Source: Gemmatimonadales bacterium (GTDB lineage Bacteria > Gemmatimonadota > Gemmatimonadetes > Gemmatimonadales > GWC2-71-9). Taken from it: a stretch of DNA of 64,000 nt. Position 1 is the first letter of the stretch, and each line of letters begins with the position of its first letter. The position numbers were made by a program, and so were the translations under genes. This document shows positions 9,948 to 30,031 of this stretch, piece after piece. The notes under the pieces were generated by a model, which was given only the letters and a program-made list of their open reading frames with translations, was not told the origin of the DNA and ran no database searches. Where the stretch lies: contig JBFJCP010000010.1 of assembly GCA_041615815.1 (NCBI GenBank), forward strand, positions 2,856 through 66,855, read 5' to 3'.

Positions 9948-9969
9948 ATTCGCGATCTCAACCGCGAAT
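9948..9969. promoter_or_regulatory. perfect 7-bp inverted repeat ATTCGCG-N8-CGCGAAT 16 nt upstream of the coxB start
   Basis: Read directly: attcgcg atctcaac cgcgaat. No obvious Shine-Dalgarno lies between it and ATG 9985. Could be an operator or a 5'-UTR hairpin. Confidence 0.3.
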
Positions 9970-9984
9970 ACGATTCGGACGCTC

Positions 9985-11031: not shown

Positions 11032-11068
11032 CCAGCGCTTCGCGGGAAGCGATTCGATAGGCTTCGTC

Positions 11069-12880: not shown

Positions 12881-12882
12881 CG

Positions 12883-13464: not shown

Positions 13465-13471
13465 CGAGCGA

Positions 13472-13786
13472 GTGATGGCTGAAGCAGAGAAATCGGGTCG
13501 GAAACATCCCAGCGTCGATGCCTACCTGGCGGTTGCGGGTGTCCTCACGATCATCACCCTGGTCGAGGTCGGGGTGTTCTACGTCCCGGCGTTTCAGGCT
13601 ATGTTGGCGCCGGTCTTGATCGTTCTGTCTGCGGGAAAGTTCGCGCTCGTCGTGATGTTCTACATGCACCTCAAGGCCGATCACAAGTTGTTTACGCTGA
13701 TCTTCAGCGTCCCGCTGCTCCTGGCGTTGGGAGTGGCTGTGGCCTTGTTGTTCCTGTTTGGGGTATTCGCGACGCAACCCGGTTAG
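13472..13786 (+). CDS. cytochrome c oxidase subunit IV (small bacterial type)
   Basis: About 100 aa with three hydrophobic segments, in the subunit IV position. KFALVVMFYMHLK motif is shared with the paralog at 28881. The start may be ATG 13475. Confidence 0.75.
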   Translation: MMAEAEKSGRKHPSVDAYLAVAGVLTIITLVEVGVFYVPAFQAMLAPVLIVLSAGKFALVVMFYMHLKADHKLFTLIFSVPLLLALGVAVALLFLFGVFATQPG

Positions 13787-15850: not shown

Positions 15851-16302
15851 AGTTTCTATGTTTGGACTGCGACACGCAGATGGCGTTCGATGAGCGGAAT
15901 GTCCCGGGTGATGGCACATTTGCGGCAGCGTTCTCCTGCCCCACGTGCGGTCGGAAGATTGCCATGCTCGCCAACCCCATGGAGACGCAATTGGTGGACG
16001 CACTGGGTGTGCAGATCGGCGGCCGCACGTTGCGCGACCAGCCGTTGGAGCTCGTCCGCGGCAAGTTGGAGGGGCGGGACGATGCGTTCGTGGAGGACGG
16101 CGCCGAGCGGGCGGATGGACCCCCGGACGGGCGTCCCCTCTGGAGCGCGGAAGCCGACGAGCGGCTCGGACGTGTGCCCAGTTTCGTTCGGGGCATGGTG
16201 AAAAAGATCTACACCGAGTATGCGCTGGAACGCGGCATTGGGGAGATCACGCCGGCCGTCATGGACCGTGCACGCGTGGAGCTCGGGCTGGAGGGTATGT
16301 AG
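15847..16302 (+). CDS. Zn-ribbon (CxxC...CxxC) protein with C-terminal PCP_red-like domain
   Basis: ATGA overlap with mrp. N-terminus MKFLCLDCDTQ...FSCPTCGRK has two CxxC pairs. The C-terminus PLWSAEADERLGRVPSFVRGMVKKIYTEYALERGIGEITPAVMDRARVEL matches the fold motif of the BchB/ChlB C-terminal (PCP_red) family. Confidence 0.7.
   Translation: MKFLCLDCDTQMAFDERNVPGDGTFAAAFSCPTCGRKIAMLANPMETQLVDALGVQIGGRTLRDQPLELVRGKLEGRDDAFVEDGAERADGPPDGRPLWSAEADERLGRVPSFVRGMVKKIYTEYALERGIGEITPAVMDRARVELGLEGM
16135..16284 (+). other. PCP_red-like motif copy 1
   Basis: PLWSAEADERLGRVPSFVRGMVKKIYTEYALERGIGEITPAVMDRARVEL. Confidence 0.65.
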
Positions 16303-16545
16303 GTGAGCGACGGGGAAGAGCGACGCGTGTGGGATCTCCGGATCCGGATCGATCGGACGTTGTGTGTGGGCTTCGGCGACTGTCTGGAGGATGCCCCAGA
16401 GGCATTCTGCCTCGACGCGGAGGGGATCGCCATTTTCGCGACCCCAGAGGCGGTGGAGCGCGCGCGACTGTTGCGGGCCTGTGAGGCCTGCCCCGTGGAC
16501 GCTCTCACCGTGTGGGATGCCGCGGGCACGCAGCTGGTCCCTTGA
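16303..16545 (+). CDS. single-cluster ferredoxin (3Fe-4S/4Fe-4S type)
   Basis: GTG start directly abuts the upstream TAG. CVGFGDC...ACEACPVDAL matches the CxxxxxC...CP pattern of small Fer4_13/15-type ferredoxins. Confidence 0.75.
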   Translation: MSDGEERRVWDLRIRIDRTLCVGFGDCLEDAPEAFCLDAEGIAIFATPEAVERARLLRACEACPVDALTVWDAAGTQLVP

Positions 16546-16570
16546 CACGGGTAGCGGCAAGTCTCATACT
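16542..16570 (+). promoter_or_regulatory. sigma70-like internal promoter candidate (TTGACA-17-CATACT)
   Basis: Perfect -35 TTGACA (16542-16547) overlaps the ferredoxin stop. A 17-nt spacer and -10 CATACT (16565-16570) follow. This would give a ~140-nt leader before the USP gene. Confidence 0.3.
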
Positions 16571-16718
16571 CGCCACCGAGGTCGGCGTTGCGCGTACATT
16601 GCACTCGGCGCAGTGGTGCGCGGGATCACGCGGGGCCCTCCAGCGCCGTCGTCCAGTGATACAGCTGTACAAATCCTAGTTGGCCACCCGAACGACCAGC
16701 CTGGCCGGAGGCGGAGCC

Positions 16719-18707
16719 GTGCATCCTCTGTATAGGGAAGTGTTCGTCCCCGTGGACAATTCCCAGCATTCGGATTGGGCTGTCGAGCGTGCCATCGAGC
16801 TGTGCCGCCAGTCGGGCGGTCGGATCACCGGCAACCACGTATACGCCGCCCGCCTGCACGACGTTCGATTTCGCCAGCTCGAGACGGGATTGCCCGCGCA
16901 GTTTCAGACCCCAGAAGAAATCAAGCGCCAACGCAAAGTGCATGACAAGCTGATCGAGAAGGGGTTGCAGCTCATCTCCGATTCGTTCCTCGATCAAGTG
17001 GAAAAGCGGTGTCAGGGTGCCGGCGTCTCCCTCCGCCGTCAGCTCTTGGAGGGCATCAACTACGAAGAGATCGTCAACGAAGTGAACAGTGGTGAGGGGA
17101 CCTTGCCGAGTCTCATCGGCTTCGATCCCAACATCGCGGCAAATTATGACGGTGGGGACAAGGTGCGGAGTGACGTGCGGCTCGGTGCAGACGGACGCAT
17201 CGTGGCGGAGGACGAGGAGTTGGATGAGAAACTCGCCGGGTCTTCGGGTCGTCGTTATGACCTCGTGGTGATCGGCGCTCATGGGATCGGTCGCCAACCG
17301 TATTCCCAATTGGGTGGTGTGGTGGCGCGCGCCATCCGGGGTATCGAAAAAGACGTGCTGCTGGTTCGGGACGATGCATCTCTCAGGGGGGGACGGTTCA
17401 TGGTGTGTGTAGACGGATCGTCCTACAGTTATAAGGCCATGCGAAGCGCGTTGGAGTTGGCGCAGGAGTTCGGGGCGTCGCTGTACGTGTGCAGCGCGTT
17501 CGACGTCGAGTACCATCACGCCGTTTTTCACAATATCAAAGACGTGCTGTCGGTCCGCGCGTCGAAAGTGTTCAAGTTCGAAGAGCAGGAAGAACTGCAC
17601 AACAACATCATCGACAAGGGGCTGCTGAAACTCAGTCAGGCGAACATCAAACGCGCAGAGGTCATGGCGCAGGAGTTTCCCGATGTTCCACTGAAGAGTC
17701 AGATTCTGATCGGCAAGCCGTTTCAGGTGATCTTGCAGTGGGCCGAGGAGATTCAGCCCACGTTGCTGATCTACGCTCGTCATGGGGCCCATCGCATCGA
17801 GGGCACCGATCTGGGATCGCAGGCGGACAACCTCGTGCGCTTGGCGTCGTGTAACACGCTCGTGGTGGGCACGGTGGGCGTCCGCCCGGAGGAGATTCCC
17901 TGGATCGAAGAGGACGGGGAGGCATCACTCCCGTGGGCGCCGGAAGCCGAGGTCCGCATCCAACGGGTGCCGCCGTTTGCGCAGGGGATCGCGCGCAAGG
18001 CCGTCGAGGAGTTCGTCATGGAGCACGGGAGCGACTTCGTGACGAACCAATGGCTCGATCAAGCCATCGCGAAGCTCCTGCCGACACACATGCAGCTCAT
18101 CATGGGGATTGGCACGGCGGAGGAGATGGCTCGGGCCGAGCTCAAGGCGCAAGAGCAGATGGCCAAGACGGAGGTCCGGGGGAGCGAGGCGGATACCGAG
18201 GCGGCGGGTGACACGGTCCAAGTGAAGTGTCCCGTGACAGGGCACATGACGGTCCGAGCGCGGACGGCGGCGGATCCCATGGTATGGACCGTCGAGGCGT
18301 TCGACCGGTTGAAAGCGGTTCCGCTCATCGCGCGCCCACTAGCCCGAAACACGGTGGAACGGTTTGGACGAGACCATGGCTTCTGGCGGATCACGACGTT
18401 GGTCATGGATGAGAACAAGCAGGCGATGATCGAGGCTGACGAGTTCGATGCCGAAACGATGATGGGAATGTTTCGCGAGCTTCGGGCCAAGCAGATCCGT
18501 GCAGAAGCCGAGGGCGGCGATGCCCTCTCGCCCGAGATGCGGCGGTTCATCGAGGAGGCGAAGGCGGCCGGCGTCACTCGGTGTCCCATCCGGGATATCG
18601 AGGAGAAGATGTCGGATTGCCCGGTGGATTTTCGCGTCGCAACACCGGAAGAGGCTCGCGCAGCGGTGGAGCGGTTCATGGTTGAAGGAGAGACGGAGAC
18701 CGACTGA
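16719..18707 (+). CDS. tandem universal stress protein (USP) domains fused to two PCP_red-like domains
   Basis: Longest ORF starts at TTG 16680. GTG 16719 is preferred because GGAGGCGGAG lies just upstream and VHPLYREVFVPVDNSQHS is a typical USP N-terminus. Second USP: RFMVCVDGSSYSYKAMRSALELA...ARHGAHRIEGTDLGSQADNLVRLASCNTLVV. Two PCP_red-like motifs and a Cys-containing tail follow. Confidence 0.75.
   Translation: MHPLYREVFVPVDNSQHSDWAVERAIELCRQSGGRITGNHVYAARLHDVRFRQLETGLPAQFQTPEEIKRQRKVHDKLIEKGLQLISDSFLDQVEKRCQGAGVSLRRQLLEGINYEEIVNEVNSGEGTLPSLIGFDPNIAANYDGGDKVRSDVRLGADGRIVAEDEELDEKLAGSSGRRYDLVVIGAHGIGRQPYSQLGGVVARAIRGIEKDVLLVRDDASLRGGRFMVCVDGSSYSYKAMRSALELAQEFGASLYVCSAFDVEYHHAVFHNIKDVLSVRASKVFKFEEQEELHNNIIDKGLLKLSQANIKRAEVMAQEFPDVPLKSQILIGKPFQVILQWAEEIQPTLLIYARHGAHRIEGTDLGSQADNLVRLASCNTLVVGTVGVRPEEIPWIEEDGEASLPWAPEAEVRIQRVPPFAQGIARKAVEEFVMEHGSDFVTNQWLDQAIAKLLPTHMQLIMGIGTAEEMARAELKAQEQMAKTEVRGSEADTEAAGDTVQVKCPVTGHMTVRARTAADPMVWTVEAFDRLKAVPLIARPLARNTVERFGRDHGFWRITTLVMDENKQAMIEADEFDAETMMGMFRELRAKQIRAEAEGGDALSPEMRRFIEEAKAAGVTRCPIRDIEEKMSDCPVDFRVATPEEARAAVERFMVEGETETD
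17928..18077 (+). other. PCP_red-like motif copy 2
   Basis: LPWAPEAEVRIQRVPPFAQGIARKAVEEFVMEHGSDFVTNQWLDQAIAKL. Confidence 0.6.
18279..18428 (+). other. PCP_red-like motif copy 3
   Basis: MVWTVEAFDRLKAVPLIARPLARNTVERFGRDHGFWRITTLVMDENKQAM. Confidence 0.6.
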
Positions 18708-18709
18708 CC

Positions 18710-20044
18710 GTGGCCACCTCGCTCGCCTTCCTCGGCGAAGCGCCGGCCTCGACCGATTCTCAGGCGACGTATGTGCCTCATGTCGTTGCCTGGAATCTCA
18801 CGCGACGGTGCAACCTGCAGTGCGCACACTGTTACATCGCTGCGGGACCCAGCGAGGTCGCTGCGGACGAATTGCGGACCGGCGAGTGCCTCCGGATTAC
18901 CGAAGAGATACTCGCCCTCAATCCCTCACCGATGTTCATTCTCTCCGGCGGCGAGCCGCTCCTGCGCGACGATCTCACGACGATTGCCGCGTTTGCTGCA
19001 GACCGTGGCGCCACCGTAGTGGTTGGGACCAACGGCACCCTGCTTACCAACCAGCGGATCGACGCGCTTCGACGAGCGGGTGTCCAAGGGGTTGCGGTGA
19101 GCGTAGAGTCCTTGGATTCCACATACCACGATCGATTCCGGCGCGGGCATGGGTCCCTCGAGGCGACACTCGCCGCCGTCGAGCGGCTGGGACAGTGTCG
19201 GCTCGACTTCGTGGTGCAAACGACCGTGACACGGGGGAACCGAGCTGAGCTGGCCCGGCTCGTCGAGTGGGCAGCCAATGTTGGTGCGGTATCGTTCAAC
19301 GCGTACTTCCTCGTCTCGACGGGGCGCGGAGCACGGATGAGCGATTTGAGCCCCGAGGAATACGAAACCTGTCTCGGCGAGCTGGTGGACTTACACGTGC
19401 GGTTCTTGGGGCAGATGATGGTGCGGGCCAAGTGCGCACCGCATTTCATGCGTCTCGTGCACCAACGAGTGCCGACCTCGCCCATCCTCCACTACGGGAC
19501 CCGCTGCCCCTGCGGTGCGCAGTACTGTCGGGTCACTCCGGACGGCAAGCTCACGGCCTGCCCGTACTTGCCGCTGCCCGTTGGCGATCTGCGGCAATCG
19601 TCGTTCGCCGCCGTTTGGCACCACGCCCCCTTGCTTCAGGCGTTACGATCACAGCCGCCGGGTGGCAAGTGCGGAGCGTGCGAGTACCGGGTGCTGTGTG
19701 GGGGCTGCCGGGCGCGCGCGTTCGCCACCACCGACGACTACCTGGCGGCCGATCCGTCGTGTGCGTACGAACCTTCTGGCGAGATCGCAGTCATCGAGCG
19801 CGCCCAACCCGTGACGTACGGCATGTTGGTGGACCGCGAACTGGTGTGGACCGCCGAGGCGCTCGACCGCATCCGCCGAGTCCCCTCGTTTGTTCGCGGT
19901 GTCGTGACAAAGCGCGTCGAGGACTACGCACGGCGGCGCGGGCTGGAGAAGGTCACCGGCGCGCTGCTCCAGGATGTCCGACGGGAAATGCCCGTAGACT
20001 TTTCGAAGCGCAAACCGTTCTTCCTACAGCGCGATGACGACTGA
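18710..20044 (+). CDS. radical SAM/SPASM enzyme (NirJ/AhbD-like) with C-terminal PCP_red-like domain
   Basis: WNLTRRCNLQCAHCY is the CxxxCxxC radical SAM cluster. LSGGEPLLRDD. SPASM cysteines CPCGAQYCRVTPDGKLTACPY and GKCGACEYRVLCGGCRARA, the latter being the tail motif I associate with tetrapyrrole-modifying NirJ/AhbC/AhbD enzymes. GTG start 2 nt after the upstream stop. Confidence 0.85.
   Translation: MATSLAFLGEAPASTDSQATYVPHVVAWNLTRRCNLQCAHCYIAAGPSEVAADELRTGECLRITEEILALNPSPMFILSGGEPLLRDDLTTIAAFAADRGATVVVGTNGTLLTNQRIDALRRAGVQGVAVSVESLDSTYHDRFRRGHGSLEATLAAVERLGQCRLDFVVQTTVTRGNRAELARLVEWAANVGAVSFNAYFLVSTGRGARMSDLSPEEYETCLGELVDLHVRFLGQMMVRAKCAPHFMRLVHQRVPTSPILHYGTRCPCGAQYCRVTPDGKLTACPYLPLPVGDLRQSSFAAVWHHAPLLQALRSQPPGGKCGACEYRVLCGGCRARAFATTDDYLAADPSCAYEPSGEIAVIERAQPVTYGMLVDRELVWTAEALDRIRRVPSFVRGVVTKRVEDYARRRGLEKVTGALLQDVRREMPVDFSKRKPFFLQRDDD
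19841..19990 (+). other. PCP_red-like motif copy 4
   Basis: LVWTAEALDRIRRVPSFVRGVVTKRVEDYARRRGLEKVTGALLQDVRREM. Confidence 0.65.
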
Positions 20045-21752
20045 ACTCCTAGCACTGCTCCAGGCTGCAGCCGACACGAGCGGGGCGTACGGCGAGTTTC
20101 CACTGATCGGGGCTCGGGCGGCCGTTTGGATCGCCGCTGAGGTGCATCTCATGTTCGCGGCCTTCGTTCTCGGTGTCCCGATGTTCGCCGTGATCACCGA
20201 ACTGATCGGCATCGTGGGCAAGGACCCGAAGTACGACAAGCTCTCGAAGGAATTTACGCGGCTGCTGGTGTTCGCCTACAGTGCGACGGCGTTGTGGGGA
20301 GCGGTCCTGGTGTTCTTTCTCACCACGCTCTACCCGGCGTTCTGGCGGCACATGGCTGAGATCTTTGGCTTGTCGATGTGGATCTACGTGGGACTGTTCT
20401 TCGTCGAGTCGTTCACGCTCTACCTCTACTATTATGGTTGGGACCGTTGGAAGGCGGGCCGGGCGAAGTGGGGACATTGGGGACTCGGTCTCCTCCTCAA
20501 TGTCTGGGGCACCACCGTCATGTTCATCGCGAACGGATGGTTGACCTACATGATGTCTCCACCGGAGGGGGTCACCGTGGCCGGGCTCCCCCCGGAGGTT
20601 TCCCTGTGGAATGCGATCGCCAATGCTACCTGGATGCCGATCAACATTCATCGGCTGATTGCGAACGCCGTCTTCGGGGGCACCATCGTGGCTGCCTACG
20701 CCGGCTATCGGTTCCTCGTGGCGAAGACGGACGAAGAACGTGCGCATTACGATTGGATGGGATACGTCGGCAACTTCATCGCGATCGCGACGTTCATCGT
20801 GCTTCCCTTTGCCGGGTACTGGTTGGGGCGGGAGATCTACGAATACAACCAGCAGATGGGAATCACGATGATGGGCGGCTTCATGAGTTGGCTGTGGATC
20901 GTGCAAGCGGTTCTGATCGGGGTGCTGTTCCTTGCCGCCAACTACTACCTCTGGTTGGGCATGCAACGGATTCCCGGTGCCGAGCGGTTCGTGCCGTACA
21001 CCAAGTGGATGCTGTTGGTTTTGGTTGTGTGTTGGTTGGTGTGGGCCACGCCGCACACCATGATTGCCAACCGCCAGGAACTGGCGGCCATGGGGGGATC
21101 GCATCACCCCTTCCTGAGCGTGCTGGGTGTGATGAGCGCCAAGAACACAGCCGTCAACCTCATGATCCTCACGACGTTCCTCTCGTTCTTGATGTACCGC
21201 CGGGCCAACAAGCTCCCCACCGTGTCGTGGGCGAAGACGGGAACGCTCATCGAGGCGGCCATGTTCGTGCTCGCCGCGGGTGTGGTGATATTCTACGGCA
21301 TCCTCGGATACTTCGTGGAGGCCATCGTGCGGATCGGATTCAGCGTGTACCAGGTGGGGGCCGTGCTCGCCTGCATCATCGGTGTGACGGCCATCGACAT
21401 AGCGCTCCTCCGAAGGGCTGGGTCCCGCGGCGAGATTCGATGGGGGCAGATGCCGGAGCGGGCTCAATACGCATTGTTCACCCTTGCGGTCACTTTTACC
21501 TGGCTCATGGCCCTCATGGGGTTCGCGCGAAGCGGCATTCGGCAGCACTGGCACGTGTGGGAGGTGATGCGAGATACGAGCGCCGCCGCGGCCACACCCG
21601 CGCTCGGGTATGCGGCCAACATGATCAGCGTATGCGTCCTCGTGTTCCTCAGTCTCGTGGCGTTCATCTTCTGGCTCGGTGGCTTGGCGGAACGCGCTAC
21701 CACGCGGACCCCCGAGCCCCAGCCGGTCCTGCGTCCAGCGGGGGCGGAGTGA
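20034..21752 (+). CDS. cytochrome bd subunit I (CydA)-like membrane haem protein, no CydB partner
   Basis: 11-nt overlap with the radical SAM gene. CydA-like landmarks: TM1 His (AAEVHLMFAAF), FFVESFTLYLYYYGWDRW (compare FLESTFVGLFFFGWDR), FIANGWLTYM (compare ANGWMQ), INIHRLIANAVFGG (position of the haem b558 His). Divergent C-terminal half, about 12 TM segments. No cydB-like gene anywhere in the window. Confidence 0.8.
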   Translation: MTTELLALLQAAADTSGAYGEFPLIGARAAVWIAAEVHLMFAAFVLGVPMFAVITELIGIVGKDPKYDKLSKEFTRLLVFAYSATALWGAVLVFFLTTLYPAFWRHMAEIFGLSMWIYVGLFFVESFTLYLYYYGWDRWKAGRAKWGHWGLGLLLNVWGTTVMFIANGWLTYMMSPPEGVTVAGLPPEVSLWNAIANATWMPINIHRLIANAVFGGTIVAAYAGYRFLVAKTDEERAHYDWMGYVGNFIAIATFIVLPFAGYWLGREIYEYNQQMGITMMGGFMSWLWIVQAVLIGVLFLAANYYLWLGMQRIPGAERFVPYTKWMLLVLVVCWLVWATPHTMIANRQELAAMGGSHHPFLSVLGVMSAKNTAVNLMILTTFLSFLMYRRANKLPTVSWAKTGTLIEAAMFVLAAGVVIFYGILGYFVEAIVRIGFSVYQVGAVLACIIGVTAIDIALLRRAGSRGEIRWGQMPERAQYALFTLAVTFTWLMALMGFARSGIRQHWHVWEVMRDTSAAAATPALGYAANMISVCVLVFLSLVAFIFWLGGLAERATTRTPEPQPVLRPAGAE

Positions 21753-21759
21753 GGCGATC

Positions 21760-22551
21760 ATGCTGATGACCAATCTGAAAGTCGTGGTCGTGGCGGTGGC
21801 AGTGATCGGCTTCTACACCATGGTGGCGCATATCATCCCACAGCTCGAGTCCGAGGTCCCCGAACAGTTGGATCTCGGCGCTGATGTGACCACCGAGGAG
21901 CTGGTGGCGGCGGGAGAACGCATCTATAACGGTGCGGGGGGATGCACCGCCTGCCACGGCCTCGGTACCAGAGCGCCCAATCTGCTGACCGATCACGCCG
22001 GTCAAGGCCAAATTGGGGCGCGGTGCGGTGGCCGGGAGTCTGGGAAGGACTGTAAGGCATACTTGCACGAATCGATGGTGGAACCGGGTACCTATGTCGT
22101 CGAAGGGTTCGGCAACATCATGCCGGACATGCGTCGCCAGCTCACCGACGATCAGATCTGGACGGTGGTGGCCTACCTCCAGTCGCTTGGCGGCGAAGTG
22201 ACTGTCACCGGCGCGGATGTCCAGGCAGCATCGAGCGGTAGTGAGGCAGGCGGACCGGCGACGGCGGCTGCGCCACGGTCGACCACGAGCGATCCCCGAC
22301 AGCTGCTCACCGAGCATGCGTGCCTCGGATGTCATGCCATCGACGGTCAGGGCCCACCCATCGGCCCCTCCTTCGATGGTATGGGATCGCGCATCTCGGC
22401 CGACCGGATCCGGCGGGGCATCCTCGATCCAAATGTCGAGGTGGCGGCGGGGTTCGACCAGTTCGCCGGGATGATGCCGGCGACCTTCGGCGATCAGCTA
22501 TCTGCGGGCCAGCTCGAAGCAATCGTCCAATTCCTGGTGGCTCGGAAATGA
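21760..22551 (+). CDS. membrane-anchored dihaem cytochrome c
   Basis: ORF trimmed to ATG 21760 (MLMTNLKVVVVAVAVIGFYTMV is the TM anchor), with GAGG 7 nt upstream. Two CxxCH motifs: CTACH and CLGCH. Confidence 0.85.
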   Translation: MLMTNLKVVVVAVAVIGFYTMVAHIIPQLESEVPEQLDLGADVTTEELVAAGERIYNGAGGCTACHGLGTRAPNLLTDHAGQGQIGARCGGRESGKDCKAYLHESMVEPGTYVVEGFGNIMPDMRRQLTDDQIWTVVAYLQSLGGEVTVTGADVQAASSGSEAGGPATAAAPRSTTSDPRQLLTEHACLGCHAIDGQGPPIGPSFDGMGSRISADRIRRGILDPNVEVAAGFDQFAGMMPATFGDQLSAGQLEAIVQFLVARK

Positions 22552-23363
22552 GTGGGAAGATCGGTACCGTCCTGCGCCACCCGTTTTGGCAGGCCATCCT
22601 GCTGCTGGTTCTGGCATATGTCGTCTTCAAATACGGTATCGCGTATCTACCGCCGTTGTTCGGGATCGCCAGCGCGCCCGTGCCCAACAGTGTGCTCATC
22701 CAATTCATGCTGACGGCGCTCGTCGGGATCCTGATCTACGTCAGTGACAACGATGAGAAGTGGCGGAAGTTCAAGGAGCCCATCGTCGCGACGATGATCG
22801 ACACCGACAAGCGATGGCTTCGGGGCGGCCTATTGGTTCTGATCCCCGTCCTCGTGGGCTTCGTGACGTACGATCAGGCGCGGCCCAAGGTGTCGGCACC
22901 GGTCCAACTCCGTTCCATCCACCCGGCGCCGCCAAGCCAGATCACCTTCCGCGGTCAGCCGATGCAGCTCGCGGGATTGGAAAACCCGCTGCGCCGTTCG
23001 GGCCCGCTGGAGGAACACGCCCTCGAGGGACGGCGGGTCTACTATCAGAACTGTCTCGCGTGCCACGGCGATCTCCTGGATGGGGAGGGACACTACGCGC
23101 ATGGATTCAACCCCTTGCCGCTGGCGTTCGACGATCCCGGAACCATCGCGCAGCTCACCGAGAGCTTTGTGTTCTGGCGCATCGCCAAAGGCGGTCCCGG
23201 GCTCCCCCGCGAGGGAACCCCGTGGAATTCAGCCATGCCGGCCTGGGAGGACTTTCTGACAGAAGAGGAGATCTGGGCCGTCATCATCTTCCTGTACGAG
23301 CAGTCCGGATGGGAGCCCCGTACGTGGGAGGAAGCTGGGGAGGAAGGAGGCGCCCATGACTAG
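22548..23363 (+). CDS. polytopic membrane monohaem cytochrome c
   Basis: ATGA overlap with the upstream gene (MSGKIGTVLRHPFW...). Three TM segments precede a periplasmic domain with CLACH. Confidence 0.8.
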   Translation: MSGKIGTVLRHPFWQAILLLVLAYVVFKYGIAYLPPLFGIASAPVPNSVLIQFMLTALVGILIYVSDNDEKWRKFKEPIVATMIDTDKRWLRGGLLVLIPVLVGFVTYDQARPKVSAPVQLRSIHPAPPSQITFRGQPMQLAGLENPLRRSGPLEEHALEGRRVYYQNCLACHGDLLDGEGHYAHGFNPLPLAFDDPGTIAQLTESFVFWRIAKGGPGLPREGTPWNSAMPAWEDFLTEEEIWAVIIFLYEQSGWEPRTWEEAGEEGGAHD

Positions 23364-24936
23364 GGGGAATGGGAACGGCGGACGGTTGGAAGGGCTCCTG
23401 CTCGTCGTCGCTTTCTCCGGCTCATGGCTCTTTTATCCGGGCCCCCTGGTGGCTCAGGACCTGGAGCGCGGCAAAGTCGTGTACGACAAGTGGTGTGCGG
23501 GTTGCCATGGGGACGACGGCGCCGGACTGGGCGAGGCCGCGGCCTTCATGCTTCCCCGGCCGCGGGATTTCACTCGGGGTGACTACCAGATTCGCACGAC
23601 GGCCAGCGGGGAGCTTCCCACCGATGCCGACATCCGCCGAATGGTGGACGAAGGGATGCCCGGCAGCGCGATGCCGGGTTGGGAGCGGCGCTTGAGTGAG
23701 CAGGATCGCAACAACGTGGTGGCCTATATCAAGTCGTTTTCACGGTTCTTCGACGGAGCCGCACCGGAACCGGTCGATTTCGGGCGGGCGCCCCGGAGGA
23801 CGGATGAAGGGCTGGCAGAGGGCGAGCAAGTCTTCCGGGAGCTGGAGTGTTTCAAATGTCATGGAGATGCGGGACGTGGCGATGGACAATCTGCGCCTAC
23901 CCTCACCGATGACTGGGACTTCCCCATTCGCGCTGCGGACCTCACCAAGCCCTGGAACTTCAACGGTGGTGGCACGGCCGAACAGATCTTCCGCCGCTTC
24001 CGTACGGGGTTGAATGGGACCCCGATGCCGTCCTACAACGATGTTTTGGATGCCGGCATCGTGACCGAGGAGCAGTTGTGGCACCTCGCCCAATACGTTC
24101 GTTCGTTGGGGCCGGACGAGCCGACCCCGCGGATTCGGGACGTCGTGCGGGCGCAGCTGGCGGATGGAGCGCTCCCGTCGGGACCGGGAGACACGGCCTG
24201 GGCCGGTGTGGAGCAGTTTTACATTCCGCTCGTTGGGCAGATCATTGTGAAGCCGCGCTGGTTTGCACCCACGGTGGACGGACTCTGGGTGCAAGCCCTG
24301 CACGACGGCGATCAGCTAGCCATTCGCCTCACGTGGAGTGACCCGTCGGAGAGCCCCGACCCCGCGTGGCAAGAGTGGCTGGGGCGAGTCACGAGCACGA
24401 TGTCCGATGGGGACGGTGTGATGGCCGCCGAGCAGGGTGCCGATCGCGTGGTCGTGCAATTCCCGACCCGCCTGTCGGACGGGATGGAGCGGCCCTATTT
24501 TCTTGGGGGCTCGAACCGCAGCCCGGTCTACGTATGGCGCTGGACCAGCGATCCGGACCGGCTGGAGGAAGGTACGACCACCGGGCTTGGTGCCTTCGCG
24601 CCGCTGGCCGGCGGGACCGTTACCCATGCCGCGCGGCACGGTCAGGGGCAGTGGCAGATCCAACTGACGCGATCGCTCGTTCCGGCAGACTCGACGGTCC
24701 TGCGGTTCGACCGGGGCCAGCCCATCCCCGTGGCCTTCTTTGCCGCGGATGGCTCGAACGGGGAAGATTGGGTGCGTGGCTCCGTGAGTGCCTGGTATCA
24801 GATCTATCTCGATGTTCCCACCCCGGTTGCAGCGTATGTGGCGCCGATTGTGGCGATGCTCCTGACGGCTGCCTTGGGGATGGTCGTGATTGCGCGAGCT
24901 CAACAGCGCGGCCGACAGGCCGCCCAATCATCGTAG
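23356..24936 (+). CDS. dihaem cytochrome c fused to EB_dh (ethylbenzene-dehydrogenase gamma-like haem b) domain, C-terminal TM anchor
   Basis: 8-nt overlap with the upstream gene. CAGCH and CFKCH motifs. EB_dh-like region: LWVQALHDGDQLAIRLTWSD...VVVQFPTRLSDGMERPYFLGG...VYVWRW...PVAFFAADGSNGEDWVRGSVSAWYQIYL. C-terminal TM VAPIVAMLLTAALGMVVIA. Confidence 0.8.
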   Translation: MTRGNGNGGRLEGLLLVVAFSGSWLFYPGPLVAQDLERGKVVYDKWCAGCHGDDGAGLGEAAAFMLPRPRDFTRGDYQIRTTASGELPTDADIRRMVDEGMPGSAMPGWERRLSEQDRNNVVAYIKSFSRFFDGAAPEPVDFGRAPRRTDEGLAEGEQVFRELECFKCHGDAGRGDGQSAPTLTDDWDFPIRAADLTKPWNFNGGGTAEQIFRRFRTGLNGTPMPSYNDVLDAGIVTEEQLWHLAQYVRSLGPDEPTPRIRDVVRAQLADGALPSGPGDTAWAGVEQFYIPLVGQIIVKPRWFAPTVDGLWVQALHDGDQLAIRLTWSDPSESPDPAWQEWLGRVTSTMSDGDGVMAAEQGADRVVVQFPTRLSDGMERPYFLGGSNRSPVYVWRWTSDPDRLEEGTTTGLGAFAPLAGGTVTHAARHGQGQWQIQLTRSLVPADSTVLRFDRGQPIPVAFFAADGSNGEDWVRGSVSAWYQIYLDVPTPVAAYVAPIVAMLLTAALGMVVIARAQQRGRQAAQSS

Positions 24937-24945
24937 GGAGGAAGA

Positions 24946-25707
24946 ATGCGACGAGTACTCTTGTCGACGGTTTGTGTCCTGGTTGCGTGTGGTGGCGGTG
25001 AGCAGGCCGCCGATGGCGGTGGAGACGCGGCGGCGACTGCCATGGCCAGCGGACCGCGTGGTGATGGGGCCATTGCGGGGATGGTCATGTTCACTGGGAC
25101 GCCACCGGCGAACCCGACCATTGATATGTCCGAGGAGCCCGAGTGCGTGGCCAAGTACACTGGTTCACCAACCGATCCACGCGTGGTGGTCAGTAACGGC
25201 CATCTTGGCGGCGTGTTCGTCTATGTGAAGAGCGGGCTTCCGGCGGGAGCGAATTATACAGCGCCATCCTCACCGGTGATGCTGGATCAGGACGGCTGTC
25301 TGTACCACCCCCGTGTCTTTGGCGTCATGGCTGGCCAGCCCATCGAAATCAGCAACAGCGATCCCATGCTTCACAACATCAAGGCAGTCCCGGAGCAGAA
25401 CCGGGGGTTCAACATCAGCCAGCCTCGCGAGGGCATGACGACCACGCGGACGTTCAACACGCCCGAGGTCATGGTACCGTTTGAATGCAACGTTCACGGG
25501 TGGATGAACGCTTATGCGGGCGTCATGAGTCACCCCTTTTACGCAACGTCTGCGGAGAACGGATCCTTTTCGATTCAGGGGTTGCCTGCGGGGACCTACG
25601 AGCTCGAAGCGTGGCACGAGACGCTCGGGACCCAGACGCAGTCGGTCACGGTGCCCGAGACGGGGACCGTGAACGTCGAGTTCTCGTTCAGCGCATCGAC
25701 CTCGTAA
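24946..25707 (+). CDS. cupredoxin-like lipoprotein (putative type-1 Cu site) with carboxypeptidase-regulatory-like beta-sandwich
   Basis: Lipobox VLVACGG and RBS GGGAGGAAG. Candidate Cu ligands His143 (MLHNIK) plus C181-x2-H184-x2-M187 (FECNVHGWMNAY). C-terminal GSFSIQGLPAGTYELEAWHETLG. Confidence 0.65.
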   Translation: MRRVLLSTVCVLVACGGGEQAADGGGDAAATAMASGPRGDGAIAGMVMFTGTPPANPTIDMSEEPECVAKYTGSPTDPRVVVSNGHLGGVFVYVKSGLPAGANYTAPSSPVMLDQDGCLYHPRVFGVMAGQPIEISNSDPMLHNIKAVPEQNRGFNISQPREGMTTTRTFNTPEVMVPFECNVHGWMNAYAGVMSHPFYATSAENGSFSIQGLPAGTYELEAWHETLGTQTQSVTVPETGTVNVEFSFSASTS

Positions 25708-25722
25708 GGAGGCAAGGCCGTC

Positions 25723-26409
25723 ATGCCATATGACTGGGGACTCCCCATCGCGGCGTCGACCTTCGCGGCGGACATCGACCGACTCTACTACATGATCTTG
25801 GTGATTACGGGCATCGCCTTCGTCATCGTGGAGGTGGCGATCGTCTGGTTTCTCATCAAGTACCGAGCACGCCCTGGTCGCAAGGCCTATTATACCCACG
25901 GTAGCGCCAAGGCAGAGGTCATTTGGACGGCCGTGCCCGCGGTAGTCGTCGTCGGATTGGGTATTCTCAGCGCGTCCGTATGGAGTCACATTCGTGGGCG
26001 GGACAGCGTTCCCCCCAATGCGTTGCCGATTGCGCTCGAGGCCAAGCAATTCGAGTGGAACGCGACGTATCCTGGTGCCGACGGGGAGCTAGGCACCGGC
26101 GACGATTTCACGATGCGGAATCTGCTGCAGATTCCGGTCAATCAGCCCGTCGTGGTTCACCTCACCTCGGAGGACGTGATTCATTCCTTCTTCGTACCCG
26201 AGTTCCGTGTCAAGCACGATGCGGTGCCGGGTATGGAGGCCCGAGTGTGGTTCGAGGCCACGATGACCGGGGAGTTTTCCATCGCTTGCGCCGAACTGTG
26301 CGGCTTGGGGCACTACCGGATGGCTGCTCGGGTCGTGGTACAAGACCAGGCCGAGTACGATCAATGGTTGGCCGAACAGGCCGCGAACCAAACCGTAGCT
26401 TCGCGTTAG
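25723..26409 (+). CDS. coxB: cytochrome c oxidase subunit II (no fused cytochrome c domain)
   Basis: RBS AAGGAGG. Two N-terminal TM segments. CuA site HSFFVPEF...CAELCGLGHYRM. Confidence 0.9.
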   Translation: MPYDWGLPIAASTFAADIDRLYYMILVITGIAFVIVEVAIVWFLIKYRARPGRKAYYTHGSAKAEVIWTAVPAVVVVGLGILSASVWSHIRGRDSVPPNALPIALEAKQFEWNATYPGADGELGTGDDFTMRNLLQIPVNQPVVVHLTSEDVIHSFFVPEFRVKHDAVPGMEARVWFEATMTGEFSIACAELCGLGHYRMAARVVVQDQAEYDQWLAEQAANQTVASR

Positions 26410-26416
26410 AGGACTC

Positions 26417-28171
26417 ATGGCGACGACAGCAGCTGCCTTCGACCACGTAGCCCACGCGCACGCCGACACGCGGTCGTTCATTCGTCGATACATTTTCTCG
26501 ACGGATCACAAGATTATCGGGATCCAGTTCCTCATTATGAGTCTGTTCTTCCTCCTCGTGGGGGGAACGCTGGCGATCATGATGCGCTGGCAGCTGGGTT
26601 TCCCCGGCGAGGCGTTTCCGGGTGGCGGTGTGCTCCCGGAGACGATGGCACCGGACGGTGTGCTCTTGCCGGAGTTTTACAACTCACTGGTGACGATGCA
26701 CGGCACGTTCATGGTCTTTTTCGCGATCATGCCGCTGCTCGTGGGTGTGTACGCGAACTTCCTGATCCCGCTCAAGATCGGCGCACCAGACATGGCGTTC
26801 CCGCGCCTCAACATGGTTTCGTTTTGGGTCGCCATGCCGGCCGGATTGATCATGATGGCGGGGTTCCTGGTGGAGGGAGGTGCCGCCGGGGCCGGATGGA
26901 CCATGTACGCGCCGTTGAGTGCCAATCCGGAATACTCAGGGGTCAGCGGAGGGCAGATTCTCTGGTGTGTGAGTATCGCGGTGCTGGGCCTCTCATCGAT
27001 CCTCGGATCGACCAACTATATCACGACCATCATCAACATGCGGGCGCCGGGCATGACCTGGTTCCGCATGCCACTCAGTATCTGGTCGCTCTTCATCACG
27101 GCGATTCTGACCATTCTGGCCATCCCCATTCTCTCCGGGGCGGCCATCATGCTGTTGTTCGATCAGCTCATCGGTACCCATTTCTTTCTGCCGCCGGATG
27201 GGGGCCAGCCGCTCCTGTGGCAGCACCTGTTCTGGTTCTTCGGCCATCCGGAGGTCTACATCCTGATCCTACCGGCCATGGGGATGGTGTCTGATATCAT
27301 CGCGAACGGCTCGAGGAAGCCGATCTTCGGATATCACTCGATGGTCTATGCCATGATCGGTATCGGCTTCCTCGGATGGATCGTTTGGGGACATCACATG
27401 TTCCAGAGTGGGATGAACCCGACGCTGGGCATGTCCTTCATGATCTCGACGATGCTGATTGCCGTGCCCTCTGCCATCAAGACGTTCAACTGGTTGGGCA
27501 CAATGTGGAGGGGGAGTATCCGTTTCCACGTCCCGATGCTCAACGCGGTCGCGTTTGTCGCGATGTTCGTGATCGGCGGGCTGAGTGGGGTGTTCATGGC
27601 CTCCACGCCCGTGGACATCCAGATTCACGATACGTACTTCATCGTGGCGCACCTCCACTATGTGTTGTTCGGGGGGAGCCTGTTCGCACTGTTTGGCGCC
27701 ATCACGTTCTGGTATCCCAAGATGTTCGGGCGGATGATGAGCGAGTTTTGGGGGAAGGTGCATTTCGTGCTGACGTTCATCTTCTACAACCTCACGTTCT
27801 TTCCGATGCACCAGATTGGCTTGGGTGGCCACATGCGGCGGATCTACGATCCGACCGAATACGAGTTCTTGCTGCCGCTGCAGGGGCTCAACCGATTCAT
27901 CACGATCAGCGCGATCCTCCTGTTCGCCACACAAACCATCTTTGCGTTGAACTTCATCATTAGTTGGTTCAGGGGGAAGAAAGCACCTGACAATCCGTGG
28001 GAGGATACCGGCGTCGAGTGGAGTACTCCTTCGCCGGCACCCCATGGCAACTTCCCGACGACGCCAACGGTCCATCACGGACCGTACGAGTTCAGCTCAC
28101 CGCTCGTGGAGGAAGACTACTTGATGCAGGATCGTAGGGTCAGCAAACCCGCGACTCCGGCCGCCAGCTGA
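26417..28171 (+). CDS. coxA: cytochrome c oxidase subunit I (A-type), second copy
   Basis: LFWFFGHPEVYILILPAMG, GHHMFQSG and VAHLHYVLFGG. 584 aa. Confidence 0.95.
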   Translation: MATTAAAFDHVAHAHADTRSFIRRYIFSTDHKIIGIQFLIMSLFFLLVGGTLAIMMRWQLGFPGEAFPGGGVLPETMAPDGVLLPEFYNSLVTMHGTFMVFFAIMPLLVGVYANFLIPLKIGAPDMAFPRLNMVSFWVAMPAGLIMMAGFLVEGGAAGAGWTMYAPLSANPEYSGVSGGQILWCVSIAVLGLSSILGSTNYITTIINMRAPGMTWFRMPLSIWSLFITAILTILAIPILSGAAIMLLFDQLIGTHFFLPPDGGQPLLWQHLFWFFGHPEVYILILPAMGMVSDIIANGSRKPIFGYHSMVYAMIGIGFLGWIVWGHHMFQSGMNPTLGMSFMISTMLIAVPSAIKTFNWLGTMWRGSIRFHVPMLNAVAFVAMFVIGGLSGVFMASTPVDIQIHDTYFIVAHLHYVLFGGSLFALFGAITFWYPKMFGRMMSEFWGKVHFVLTFIFYNLTFFPMHQIGLGGHMRRIYDPTEYEFLLPLQGLNRFITISAILLFATQTIFALNFIISWFRGKKAPDNPWEDTGVEWSTPSPAPHGNFPTTPTVHHGPYEFSSPLVEEDYLMQDRRVSKPATPAAS

Positions 28172-28181
28172 GGGAGGAGCG

Positions 28182-28862
28182 ATGGCACACGCAGCAGTGA
28201 TGCAGCCTCCGGCCTCGGCGGAGACCGGTGCGGGGGTTTATAACGAGAAGCTGGGGATGTGGGTCTTCTTGGGGTCGGAGGTCATGTTCTTCACGGCCCT
28301 CATCGGGTCGTACATCATCCTGCGCTTCGCGCAGCCGCAGGCGTGGGCAGCCCCCGGCCAGATTCTCAATATTCCGGTGACGGGCGTCAATACGTTTTTG
28401 CTGATCTGTAGCTCGGTCACCATGGTCAAGGCGTTTGCCGCCGCTCAGGACGGCGACCAGCGCATGTTGAAGGCCTGGCTGCTGGCAACGGTGCTCATCG
28501 GGGCGACGTTCGTGAGCATTCAGGTGTACGAGTATCTGGTGTTGGCGCACGAAGGATTCCTCCCGAGTGGCTATGTGGCGGGCAGTCATCTGGCCGAGGT
28601 CGCAGACGGTGGTGCGGCGTACAAGGGCGGTGCGGCCTTGCCCGAATCGGTGGGGTTGTACGGTTCCACGTTCTATACGATGACTTCCTTTCATGGCTTT
28701 CACGTTACCATGGGTGTGCTGTGCATGATCTTCGTGACGGTGAAGGCGTTTCGTGGCGGGTATACAGCGGAAGACCATCGAGGAGTCGAAGTCATTGGTT
28801 TGTATTGGCACTTCGTAGACTTGGTGTGGATCGTACTCTTTACCATCGTCTACCTGATCTGA
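28182..28862 (+). CDS. coxC: cytochrome c oxidase subunit III, second copy
   Basis: RBS GGGAGGAG. FYTMTSFHGFHVTMGVLCM and YWHFVDLVWIVLFT. Carries a ~35-aa insertion relative to the copy at 12883. Confidence 0.9.
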   Translation: MAHAAVMQPPASAETGAGVYNEKLGMWVFLGSEVMFFTALIGSYIILRFAQPQAWAAPGQILNIPVTGVNTFLLICSSVTMVKAFAAAQDGDQRMLKAWLLATVLIGATFVSIQVYEYLVLAHEGFLPSGYVAGSHLAEVADGGAAYKGGAALPESVGLYGSTFYTMTSFHGFHVTMGVLCMIFVTVKAFRGGYTAEDHRGVEVIGLYWHFVDLVWIVLFTIVYLI

Positions 28863-28880
28863 AACGAGCGGGGTCGAAAG

Positions 28881-29162
28881 ATGGAACAGAAGCCACATGC
28901 CAAGCATCCTCCGTACATGGGGATCTGGGCCGCGCTGGCCCTTCTGACCGTTCTGGAGATTGGCGTGGCGTTCTTCCAGAATTGGCCTAAGGAAGTGATC
29001 ATCCTCGTGCTCGTCGGTCTCGCGATCTGGAAGGCAGTGCTGGTGGCCATGTATTTCATGCACCTGCGCTTCGAGGGCAACCAGCTCCGAATCCTCGCCG
29101 TGGCACCGCTACCACTTGCCGTGATCCTCGTGATTGCGGTGATCACCGAGTATTTGTGGTAG
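28881..29162 (+). CDS. cytochrome c oxidase subunit IV (small bacterial type), second copy
   Basis: 93 aa with three TM segments. KAVLVAMYFMHLR parallels the copy at 13472. Confidence 0.75.
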   Translation: MEQKPHAKHPPYMGIWAALALLTVLEIGVAFFQNWPKEVIILVLVGLAIWKAVLVAMYFMHLRFEGNQLRILAVAPLPLAVILVIAVITEYLW

Positions 29163-30031
29163 CGATCGCGCTCTCGCGTTCGCGGGCAGGTGACTTTCTC
29201 GAGTTGACCAAGCCCCGCATCGTTGCCCTCGTCATGGGCACCGTTGCCGCAGGGTTCTATTTGGCGAGTCCCACCGGCCTGGCGGGGCTCGCCTTGTTCC
29301 ATACCCTGCTTGGCACGGCGCTGGTCTCTGGCGGCACGAACGCGCTGAATCAGATCGCTGAACGGGACGTCGATGCTCTGATGCGGCGTACTCGAGACCG
29401 CCCACTCCCGGCGGGCCGGCTCCGACTCCCCGAGGCGTCATTGTTCGCATGGACCACGGGCCTCGGCGGGATCGGCTATCTCGCCGCGTTCGTGAATGGC
29501 CTGGTCGCGATGCTCGCTGCCGCGACACTCGTCAGTTACGTTTTCGTGTATACACCGCTCAAGCGGCACACGTCTTTGGCAACGTTGGTCGGTGCCGTGC
29601 CCGGTGCGCTCCCGATCGCGGGGGGATGGGCCGCGGCCACGGGCGGGCTTCCGCTCGGTGCCTGGGTGCTGTTTGCCATCGTATTCATGTGGCAGCTCCC
29701 ACATTTTCTGGCGTTAGCGTGGCTGTTTCGTGAAGATTACGCGCGGGCAGGGCTCAAGATGTTGAGCGTCGTTCAAGGAGCGGATTCGACCTTTCGTCAG
29801 TCCGTTCTCTACTCGGTTGCGATGGTACCAACGAGCCTGACGCCTACCGTGATCGGCCTGGCGGGACCGTTCTATTTCTTCAGTGCGATGGGATTGTCCC
29901 TGTGGCTGATCTGGGTGGCCTGGATGGCAGCCCGCCACCAGACGGCCGCTGCGGCCAGACGCCTCTTCATGACGACGATCGTTTATCTTCCCGCGATCCT
30001 CCTCGTTCTGACGCTGGACAAGATCGGATGA
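29156..30031 (+). CDS. ctaB: protohaem IX farnesyltransferase (haem O synthase)
   Basis: GTG start overlaps the upstream gene by 7 nt. LTKPRIVALV and GTNALNQIAERDVDALMRRTRDRPLPAGRL are UbiA-family CyoE/CtaB motifs. Confidence 0.9.
   Translation: MVAIALSRSRAGDFLELTKPRIVALVMGTVAAGFYLASPTGLAGLALFHTLLGTALVSGGTNALNQIAERDVDALMRRTRDRPLPAGRLRLPEASLFAWTTGLGGIGYLAAFVNGLVAMLAAATLVSYVFVYTPLKRHTSLATLVGAVPGALPIAGGWAAATGGLPLGAWVLFAIVFMWQLPHFLALAWLFREDYARAGLKMLSVVQGADSTFRQSVLYSVAMVPTSLTPTVIGLAGPFYFFSAMGLSLWLIWVAWMAARHQTAAAARRLFMTTIVYLPAILLVLTLDKIG

Follow-up and report, generated by a model that had tools for sequence, protein, structure and literature searches.

Three membrane-anchored cytochromes c, one carrying an EB_dh-fold domain, in a conserved gene module between a cytochrome bd-like subunit and an aa3 oxidase operon of Gemmatimonadota

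Which redox system is served by three consecutive membrane-anchored c-type cytochromes, the last of them fused to an EB_dh-fold domain, when no molybdoenzyme is encoded beside them? The question is posed by a 64,000-nucleotide stretch of a Gemmatimonadales genome (GenBank assembly GCA_041615815.1, contig JBFJCP010000010.1, positions 2,856 to 66,855), hereafter the window, in which the three genes lie on the forward strand at 21760-24936 (coordinates are counted from the first letter of the window, and all genes given below are on the + strand unless stated). A preliminary description had taken the EB_dh protein for a stand-alone electron relay, recruited into an aerobic chain in an unusual context, with no molybdoenzyme subunit nearby. 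The aerobic setting and the lack of molybdoenzyme genes were both borne out, the genes sit in an aerobic respiratory gene block and no molybdopterin or iron-sulphur (Fe-S) subunit was found among the 20 larger open-reading frames (ORFs) screened in the window, most of them >300 aa. The relay does not stand alone: a gene for a cytochrome bd subunit-I-like membrane protein ends 7 nt upstream, and its counterpart is present in 55/55 Gemmatimonadota loci and adjacent in 8/9 loci from distant lineages. Nor is the context unusual, as OR-N2 operons and 'alternative NxrC' (alt_NxrC) gene sets of this kind have already been described and the fusion family has 1,475 representatives. Judged by sequence comparison, the window cytochromes belong to this known, biochemically uncharacterised module type (OR-N2/alt_NxrC).

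The first gene (cytochrome 1, 21760-22551, 263 aa) encodes a membrane-anchored dihaem class I cytochrome c with two stretches of PF00034, haem-c motifs CTACH at residue 62 and CLGCH at residue 188 and a single N-terminal transmembrane (TM) anchor; the haem motifs and Met121/Met239 are conserved in 75 orthologues. Cytochrome 2 (22548-23363, 271 aa, PF13442) is a monohaem cytochrome c in which three hydrophobic TM segments precede CLACH at residue 169, with a conserved Met230. Cytochrome 3 (23356-24936, 526 aa) combines, by Pfam and NCBIfam models, a dihaem cytochrome c with the EB_dh-fold domain in the 'alternative NxrC' architecture, it begins with a cleavable-looking signal peptide (..VAQ/D), carries CAGCH at residue 47 and CFKCH at residue 165, and ends in a C-terminal TM segment at ~491-516. 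Wherever the columns were covered, C47/C50/H51/M106 and C165/C168/H169/M224 were invariant among 150 diverse representatives. The Pfam cytochrome c domains score 65.5, 38.2 and 80.6 bits in cytochromes 1, 2 and 3, respectively, and the class I pattern of CxxCH with a distal Met is present at all five haem-c sites. The five motifs and the TM segments therefore lie where the preliminary description had placed them, as do the overlaps it had noted, which measure 4 nt (ATGA) between cytochromes 1 and 2 and 8 nt between cytochromes 2 and 3, whilst the gaps to the flanking genes are 7 nt upstream and 9 nt downstream. Independent gene calls in other assemblies gave the same three proteins (263, 271 and 526 aa). 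The dihaem part of cytochrome 3 has a close relative of known structure, Kustc0457 (PDB 6H5L chain B; E = 5e-57), the dihaem partner of the HAO-like Kustc0458. Residues 36-253 align with Kustc0457 over its full length at ~45-50% identity (TM-score 0.77), and both haem motifs and both Met residues are common to the two proteins; unlike Kustc0457, which is the soluble partner of an octahaem enzyme, the module in cytochrome 3 is fused to the EB_dh domain and a TM anchor. An assignment of 6H5L chain B to Kustc0563 was ruled out, as the Foldseek metadata give Kustc0457 of the Kustc0457/0458 complex. Cytochrome 1 also has an invariant cysteine pair outside the CxxCH motifs, C89 and C98 in the first domain, which could be disulfide-bonded or bind a metal.

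The gene directly upstream (20034-21752, 572 aa) encodes the cytochrome bd subunit-I-like protein (hereafter bd-like), which overlaps the preceding radical SAM gene by 11 nt and matches PF01654 (Cyt_bd_oxida_I) at 78.7 bits, with the match confined to residues 27-279 in its N-terminal half. Family-averaged hydropathy gives 13-14 membrane segments. We found no Q-loop in the protein and no CydB-like gene in the block, so that both hallmarks of canonical CydAB, the Q-loop quinol site and CydB, are lacking. Alignment to the Geobacillus and mycobacterial CydA structures (5DOQ_A and 9R2G_A) gave equivalences in E. coli numbering: His19, His186, Glu107, His126 and Trp441 of CydA correspond to His38, His206, Glu125, His148 and Trp506 of the bd-like protein, whilst Glu99 is replaced by Tyr118 and Phe114/Phe116 by Tyr132/Tyr134, and the C-terminal GRQxW region is also alignable to CydA. 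In 65 bd-like orthologues, six of them from other phyla, H38, Y118, E125, Y132, H148, H206, H358, W506 and H507 are invariant, with His358 and His507 in the family-specific C-terminal part. Positions conserved at ≥95% number 137 and fall mostly between residues 240 and 500, this most conserved part stands in place of the Q-loop region. On this alignment the ligands of two b-type haems are preserved in the subunit, as is part of the proton channel. The same residue pattern is given for OR-N2 in Table S6 of Murali et al. 2021 (bioRxiv 10.1101/2021.01.16.426971), and six signature residues together with the gene context place the bd-like protein in the OR-N2 type. Separately, His238, His358 and His507 are invariant or nearly so and lie outside the region matched by the Pfam CydA model; they could be ligands for a further haem or copper.

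The cytochromes and the bd-like gene form part of a 15-gene block (14990-30031), in which neighbouring genes overlap or lie ≤18 nt apart, bar a single long intergenic gap of 134 nt (16545-16680). Homologues of the cytochrome 3 fusion protein numbered 2,822 among the candidates scored, and all organism-named top matches were Gemmatimonadota. When one genome per GTDB species was scanned for the locus, relatives turned up in at least 594 species (594/600 matching stretches examined), and 80 loci were retained, from Gemmatimonadales, Longimicrobiales, unresolved Gemmatimonadota and two contigs labelled Gammaproteobacteria. Counting only Gemmatimonadota loci long enough to show the gene, on the same strand and collinear, cytochrome 1 was present in 62/62 and cytochrome 2 in 71/71, the bd-like gene in every one of the 55 loci mentioned above, and a downstream cupredoxin gene in 69/70. 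Upstream, a radical SAM gene (50/50) and a gene combining Usp and PCP_red domains (47/47) were equally constant, a ferredoxin gene was present in 18/31. The oxidase genes that follow the cupredoxin were found in 69/69 (coxB), 62/62 (coxA), 61/61 (coxC) and 54/56 loci (coxD), with cyoE adjacent in 20/53 only.

A profile search returned 1,475 representative clusters of the fusion family at E ≤ 1e-30, with named members also from Nitrospirota, Nitrospinota, Rhodospirillales, Rhodocyclales and Methylomirabilota, and we inspected nine distant loci from Nitrospirota, Rhodospirillales, Nitrospinota, Rhodocyclales and unclassified lineages. Besides the adjacent bd-like gene, a cupredoxin/CarboxypepD_reg gene was nearby in 8/9, and the pair of Usp-PCP_red and radical SAM-PCP_red genes occurred in 6/9 (Nitrospirota, Nitrospinota, Rhodospirillales, Rhodocyclales and two unclassified). 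Cox genes were found in 1/9 (locus L088) and nitrite oxidoreductase (NXR) genes in 1/9, directly upstream of the module in the Nitrospinota locus L087. By these gene comparisons the evolutionarily stable unit is the bd-like subunit, the cytochromes, the cupredoxin and the PCP_red/radical SAM genes, whereas the aa3 partner is lineage-specific. In the Nitrospirota metagenome-assembled genome (MAG) contig JACPAV010000013.1 (locus L084, 10001-12298), a single 765-aa protein with three CxxCH motifs takes the place of cytochromes 2 and 3, a Rosetta-stone fusion which argues that the two cytochromes interact.

This module is largely in agreement with two described systems. According to the supplement of Murali et al. 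2021, an EbdC homologue and more than one cytochrome c are typical of OR-N2 cydA operons, with the electron donor given as unknown; the window block has the same components and lacks both petABD and a second cydA. It also shares with OR-N2 operons the single 14-TM cydA-like gene without Q-loop or CydB, the conserved His19 and His186, the replacement of Glu99 by Tyr and the retention of Glu107 and His126. It differs in that the cupredoxin, the radical SAM/PCP_red genes and the junction with the aa3 operon go unmentioned in that account. Its phylum-level supplementary table holds positive entries for Gemmatimonadota, possibly in the OR-N column. The second system is the cluster conserved among Kuenenia, Nitrospira and Nitrospina (Lucker et al. 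2013, PMC3578206). Its alternative NxrC bears two haem-c sites, one EB_dh domain and a pair of TM helices, and is accompanied by a monohaem and a dihaem cytochrome c, a zinc-finger protein, cupredoxin-like proteins and a 14-TM bd-like oxidase. The window gene set matches this cluster (PMC3578206, PMC6606698) component for component, and the Nitrospinota locus L087 shares the radical SAM and PCP_red genes with the window block. The nitrifier cluster, however, adjoins NXR and has been read as an NXR anchor or reverse-electron-transport module, whereas the window block is without NXR and its partner is an aa3 oxidase.

From 2010 or earlier (Lucker et al. 2010, cited by later papers) such bd-like complexes have been a puzzle of nitrifier and anammox bioenergetics; for bd-like (OR-N) proteins the literature proposes a role in Nitrospira as terminal oxidase, or else one in reverse electron flow. 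Lucker et al. 2013 speculated that the bd-like protein acts like alternative complex III (ACIII), Mundinger et al. 2019 (PMC6606698) found the alt_NxrC/bd-like cluster very highly expressed in N. moscoviensis, and a 2025 comparison of Nitrospirales regarded OR-N2/OR-N1 as the likely terminal oxidase and noted three cultivated aerobes with no other oxygen reductase. In the limited literature collection searched, no paper mentioned bd-like proteins together with Gemmatimonadota, so the 15-gene arrangement with aa3 appears undescribed; the same collection held no cryo-EM paper on a bd-like oxidase, and a Gemmatimonas phototrophica transcriptome paper and a Gemmatimonadota ecogenomics paper contained nothing on these genes.

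The preliminary description had called the EB_dh part of cytochrome 3 a haem-b domain, and here one half of the claim stands. Both profile and structure comparison uphold the fold: PF09459 (EB_dh) scores 45.2 bits against a cutoff of 33.3, and Foldseek searches with the AlphaFold model of cytochrome 3 (pLDDT 72) retrieved EbdC (2IVF_C, TM-score 0.76) and Kuenenia NxrC (7B04_C, TM-score 0.62). TIGR03477, the model for the haem-b subunit of type II dimethyl sulfoxide (DMSO) reductases, aligns end to end (4-204 of 206) at 83.5 bits, below its cutoff of 169.85, and NF042980 (EbdC) reaches 33.4 bits against a cutoff of 400. With EbdC, NxrC and SerC the domain shares the EB_dh beta-sandwich and the motifs ALH(D/N)G, which in cytochrome 3 contains His316 and is also present in EbdC, G-x4-P-V-x2-W-x-W and G-x3-E. 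It departs from them in its fusion to a dihaem cytochrome c and TM anchor, in having no alpha/beta partner nearby, in scoring below the TIGR03477 cutoff, and in its ligand positions. Met108 and Lys201 of EbdC, reportedly the axial ligands of haem b (Kloer et al. 2006; the numbering agrees with the chain index of our alignment), are also conserved in Kuenenia NxrC. In an alignment without gaps, flanked by the anchors G-x4-P-V-x2-W-x-W and G-x3-E-x4, these two residues fall on Gly384 and Gly475 of cytochrome 3. The canonical Met/Lys ligands are thus both glycine, and the haem-b relay role is putative.

The wider family complicates a simple loss. Across the 150 diverse representatives the two ligand positions vary widely (M/K, M/R, M/M, M/C, H/H, L/R, F/R and G/G), and in ~40% neither is Met, Lys, His or Cys. 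Position 384 is Met in 42/86 loci, the commonest state in Gemmatimonadota, and Gly in 27/86, whilst position 475 is Gly in 50/86 and Met in 15/86. His424 is invariant among the 22 closest homologues aligned and present in 26/86 loci overall. A histidine at position 424 or 428, two positions sharing one predicted strand, was found in 0/42 sequences with Met384 vs. 35/44 sequences without it. In a tree built without the 384/424/428 ligand columns, this pattern resolved into two independent clade-level events and five further lineages without a compensating histidine: in the clade of the window Met384 was replaced by Gly and His424 gained, and in a nine-member clade Met384 was replaced by R/K/Q/H/G and His428 gained. 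The pattern is suggestive of a haem-ligand swap, in which His424 may substitute for the lost canonical ligands; a second axial ligand was not evident in the sequence comparison of cytochrome 3. Haem-free CBM9 modules rank directly behind EbdC and NxrC in the Foldseek results, so a non-haem scaffold role is structurally plausible too, and we put the chances that cytochrome 3 binds haem b at roughly even. An earlier conclusion that the EB_dh domain is haem-free, drawn from the 23 closest homologues, was dropped since the 86 loci show Met384 as the commonest state and the gains of His424/428.

Five genes upstream of the bd-like gene resemble maturation factors. The block opens with an Mrp/ApbC-type Fe-S cluster carrier ATPase (14990-15850; PF10609, 185 bits), which scores 178.8 bits with NF041136 (MrpORP), under the cutoff of 450; an mrp gene is also upstream in most Gemmatimonadota loci reaching far enough and near the module in L089. 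It is overlapped by 4 nt by a gene for a small Cys-rich (CxxC...CxxC) PCP_red protein, a putative tetrapyrrole-binding module (15847-16302; PF08369, 53 bits), with similar proteins in the Nitrospinota locus L087 and in L089; PCP_red is the C-terminal domain of protochlorophyllide reductase subunit B. Next are a single-cluster 4Fe-4S ferredoxin (16303-16545; PF13370, PF13459), a protein in which Usp domains are fused to two PCP_red domains (16680-18707; PF00582, 111 bits; PF08369 in two stretches) and a radical SAM/SPASM protein of AhbD/NirJ2 type with a C-terminal PCP_red domain (18710-20044; PF04055, PF13186, PF08369). The last scores 289.6 bits with TIGR04545 (AhbD) and 285 bits with TIGR04055 (NirJ2), each below the cutoff of 500, and therefore represents a distinct family; we regard it as a candidate haem-modifying maturase. 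Together, the radical SAM, PCP_red, Mrp and ferredoxin genes probably encode dedicated maturation factors, likely for modification or insertion of a tetrapyrrole, and their co-inheritance with the bd-like gene across phyla suggests a haem-maturation pathway of the bd-like family that has gone unrecognised. No paper connecting bd-like proteins with radical SAM, NirJ, AhbD or PCP_red was found in the limited literature collection; the papers it returned for NirJ, AhbD or PCP_red were on tetrapyrrole biosynthesis. A sigma-70-like match (TTGACA, 17-nt spacer, CATACT; 10/12) at 16542-16570 (+) opens the 134-nt gap, where it overlaps the ferredoxin stop codon upstream of the Usp-PCP_red gene; a promoter and terminator scan of the region gave a number of sites not above chance.

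Downstream, a lipoprotein gene (24946-25707, lipobox LVAC) starts 9 nt after cytochrome 3 and ends 15 nt before coxB. Its product combines a cupredoxin domain with a C-terminal CarboxypepD_reg beta-sandwich. Pfam and phmmer searches against the PDB saw the CarboxypepD_reg part alone, and the cupredoxin domain surfaced through structure prediction (AlphaFold pLDDT 85), with Foldseek matches to amicyanin, plastocyanin and pseudoazurin at TM-scores of 0.6-0.73; JGI labels orthologues 'plastocyanin', and databases annotate the gene as 'carboxypeptidase regulatory-like'. H143, C181, H184 and M187 are invariant in 76 orthologues, distant ones included, in an amicyanin-like Cys-x2-His-x2-Met loop, and there is little or no variation at the Cys67/Cys118 pair and His224 either. 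From the model and these residues, the product is a lipid-anchored type-1 copper protein with predicted copper binding. In a Rhodocyclales MAG (L090, 11518-12399) the usual cupredoxin slot directly after the EB_dh protein holds a SCO1/SenC-type copper chaperone gene, a hint that the module includes copper delivery.

The oxidase genes follow without interruption: CoxB, the CuA subunit II (25723-26409; TIGR02866, 171.9 bits, above the cutoff of 147.7), with the CuA motif CAELCGLGHYRM read from its translation and no fused cytochrome c domain, then CoxA, the A-family haem-copper oxidase subunit I (26417-28171; PF00115, 502 bits), and CoxC (28182-28862) and CoxD (28881-29162), both conserved by tblastn. 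The counterpart of CoxC in L088 (41% identical) carries PF00510 (COX3), and CoxD is assigned by size and position only. The block closes with a haem O synthase (CyoE/CtaB, 29156-30031; PF01040 UbiA, 196.6 bits). A second A-family oxidase operon lies further upstream in the window (9700-13786, +), with a caa3-type CoxB carrying a C-terminal cytochrome c domain (443 aa), CoxA (603 aa), CoxC (193 aa) and a small fourth ORF, so that two haem-copper oxidases and the bd-like complex are encoded inside 20 kb.

How might these proteins work together? With a little more than even confidence, we propose that the three cytochromes belong as subunits to a single membrane complex, which has a bd-like core and the blue-copper lipoprotein as its other conserved member. 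The five His/Met-ligated c haems, on four to five TM anchors at the periplasmic face, and the type-1 copper would form an electron wire linking periplasmic high-potential carriers with the b-type haems at His38 and His206 of the bd-like subunit. The EB_dh-fold domain would be a scaffold derived from molybdoenzyme gamma subunits which has lost the canonical Met/Lys haem-b ligation, and would either hold haem b via His424 or act as a docking module only. The upstream radical SAM, PCP_red, Mrp and ferredoxin genes would mature the complex, probably with a modified tetrapyrrole. As to the reaction, we slightly but tentatively favour reduction of O2 by the bd-like subunit with a c-type haem or copper as donor, because the equivalents of His19, Glu107 and His126 are retained and the OR-N enzymes are viewed in this way in the literature; the absence of quinol-site residues, the Nitrospira aerobes without another oxygen reductase and the oxidase-rich neighbourhood also suggest this. 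Several points weigh against the proposal. The literature found reports no purified OR-N complex, and we infer both the physical assembly of the proteins and the chemistry of the bd-like subunit from gene linkage and sequence. The protein has no quinol-binding Q-loop, and according to Murali et al. 2021 the b595 ligand Glu445 is not conserved in OR-N2, thus the active site is unlike that of true bd oxidases. A complete, co-transcribed aa3 oxidase would be redundant if the complex were itself an oxidase, and the cluster is conserved also in strictly anaerobic anammox bacteria (PMC3578206, PMC6606698). The distant homologue in L092 has no bd-like gene within 10 kb, and haem b in the EB_dh domain is putative only, with both canonical ligands Gly.

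Conservation in anaerobic anammox bacteria also speaks for a rival reading, in which the bd-like/cytochrome c/cupredoxin module would be a menaquinol:cytochrome c (or cupredoxin) oxidoreductase, a complex III substitute which feeds the aa3 oxidase and runs in reverse in nitrite oxidisers and anammox bacteria. We consider this nearly as likely as O2 reduction, though well short of even chances. Module and coxBAC are collinear wherever a locus extends far enough (61-69 loci per gene), and coxD mostly joins them; the window gaps between module and cox genes are 9-15 nt, and cox adjoins the module again in the unrelated L088; as CoxB here lacks a fused cytochrome c domain, an external donor is needed. 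The most conserved part of the bd-like protein (240-500) replaces the Q-loop region, which also speaks for such a role, and an ACIII-like role of the protein was proposed by Lucker et al. 2013. Among 326 Gemmatimonadota genomes, Zheng et al. 2022 reported caa3 in 74%, petB in 23% and ACIII in <10%, and suggested unknown complex III modules, although these petB and ACIII percentages come from KEGG annotation of incomplete MAGs. Set against this, no quinol site is recognisable and, according to Lucker et al. 2013, all canonical bd quinol-binding residues are absent, the O2 active-site and proton-channel residues (equivalents of His19, Glu107 and His126) are invariant, and a cytochrome b gene lies beside the module in L088, therefore a bc complex can coexist with it. 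The likeness to ACIII is one of functional analogy only: a c-haem-rich membrane module sits directly upstream of an A-family oxidase, as does ACIII beside caa3/aa3 genes, an adjacency reportedly found in many bacteria. Unlike ACIII, the 15-gene block has no ActB (Fe-S, molybdopterin-like) or NrfD-like ActC/ActF domains, and the membrane subunit of the module belongs to the bd superfamily.

The position of the cupredoxin gene, 15 nt upstream of coxB, raises a simpler reading, that the cytochromes and cupredoxin are mere donors to the adjacent aa3 oxidase and function independently of the bd-like protein. Where Gemmatimonadetes COX clusters contain c4-like cytochromes and cupredoxins, Degli Esposti et al. 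2020 treated these clusters as variants of the rus operon of Acidithiobacillus (cyc2-cyc1-coxBACD-rus), which also encodes a dihaem cytochrome c and a cupredoxin with an aa3 oxidase. The window block, however, has a bd-like subunit and an EB_dh protein, its lipid-anchored cupredoxin is encoded upstream of coxB, and we recognised no outer-membrane cytochrome of Cyc2 type among its genes. Outside Gemmatimonadota the cytochromes and cupredoxin stay with the bd-like gene whilst cox does so in a single locus of nine, and because cox is not co-inherited elsewhere we rate this reading as improbable. More improbable still is a scenario in which a type II DMSO-reductase-family enzyme has its genes elsewhere in the genome and uses the EB_dh protein as gamma subunit or membrane anchor. 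The Nitrospinota module does lie directly downstream of NxrA, NxrB and TorD (L087), and alt_NxrC has been proposed as an NXR anchor (PMC3578206, PMC6606698); but the window screen and 8/9 distant loci revealed no Mo or Fe-S subunit, NarGHI occurs in only 2-10% of Gemmatimonadota genomes (Zheng et al. 2022) vs. the module in at least 594 species, the Met/Lys ligands are missing and TIGR03477 stays below its cutoff.

Returning to the proposed bd-like complex, the module is a phylum-wide fixture of Gemmatimonadota, a phylum reported as mostly aerobic and with cultured aerobic members, where its tie to aa3 and not NXR suggests a general function rather than a nitrite-specific one. These may be more tractable organisms for questions on bd-like proteins and on a 'missing complex III', and the finding is also relevant to reports that bc1 and ACIII are scarce in Gemmatimonadota genomes which carry cytochrome c oxidases. 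In its fullest and, in our view, unlikely form, the module would itself be that missing complex III: a menaquinol:cytochrome c/cupredoxin oxidoreductase on a bd scaffold, in supercomplex with aa3, holding a modified haem made by the radical SAM/PCP_red proteins and working in reverse mode beside NXR. If true, reverse running of the same enzyme would explain its conservation beside NXR in nitrite oxidisers and anammox bacteria. The co-inherited radical SAM/PCP_red genes are, in addition, a new lead on haem maturation for the bd-like family.

Other features of the window and the loci were recorded in passing. An 872-aa ORF at 1590-4208 (-) has a coding-like GC content at third codon positions (0.78) and no Pfam match at E ≤ 1e-4. 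The module of an unclassified lineage (L091, 5098-14587) lies between two bd-like genes (670 and 698 aa), with a second dihaem/EB_dh gene 9 kb downstream and no radical SAM gene within 10 kb. The two contigs labelled 'Gammaproteobacteria bacterium' (L061 and L076) carry a complete Longimicrobiales-type block with the synteny and ligand states of L060, their proteins share 49-51% identity with the window protein, and they are probably mis-binned Gemmatimonadota contigs.

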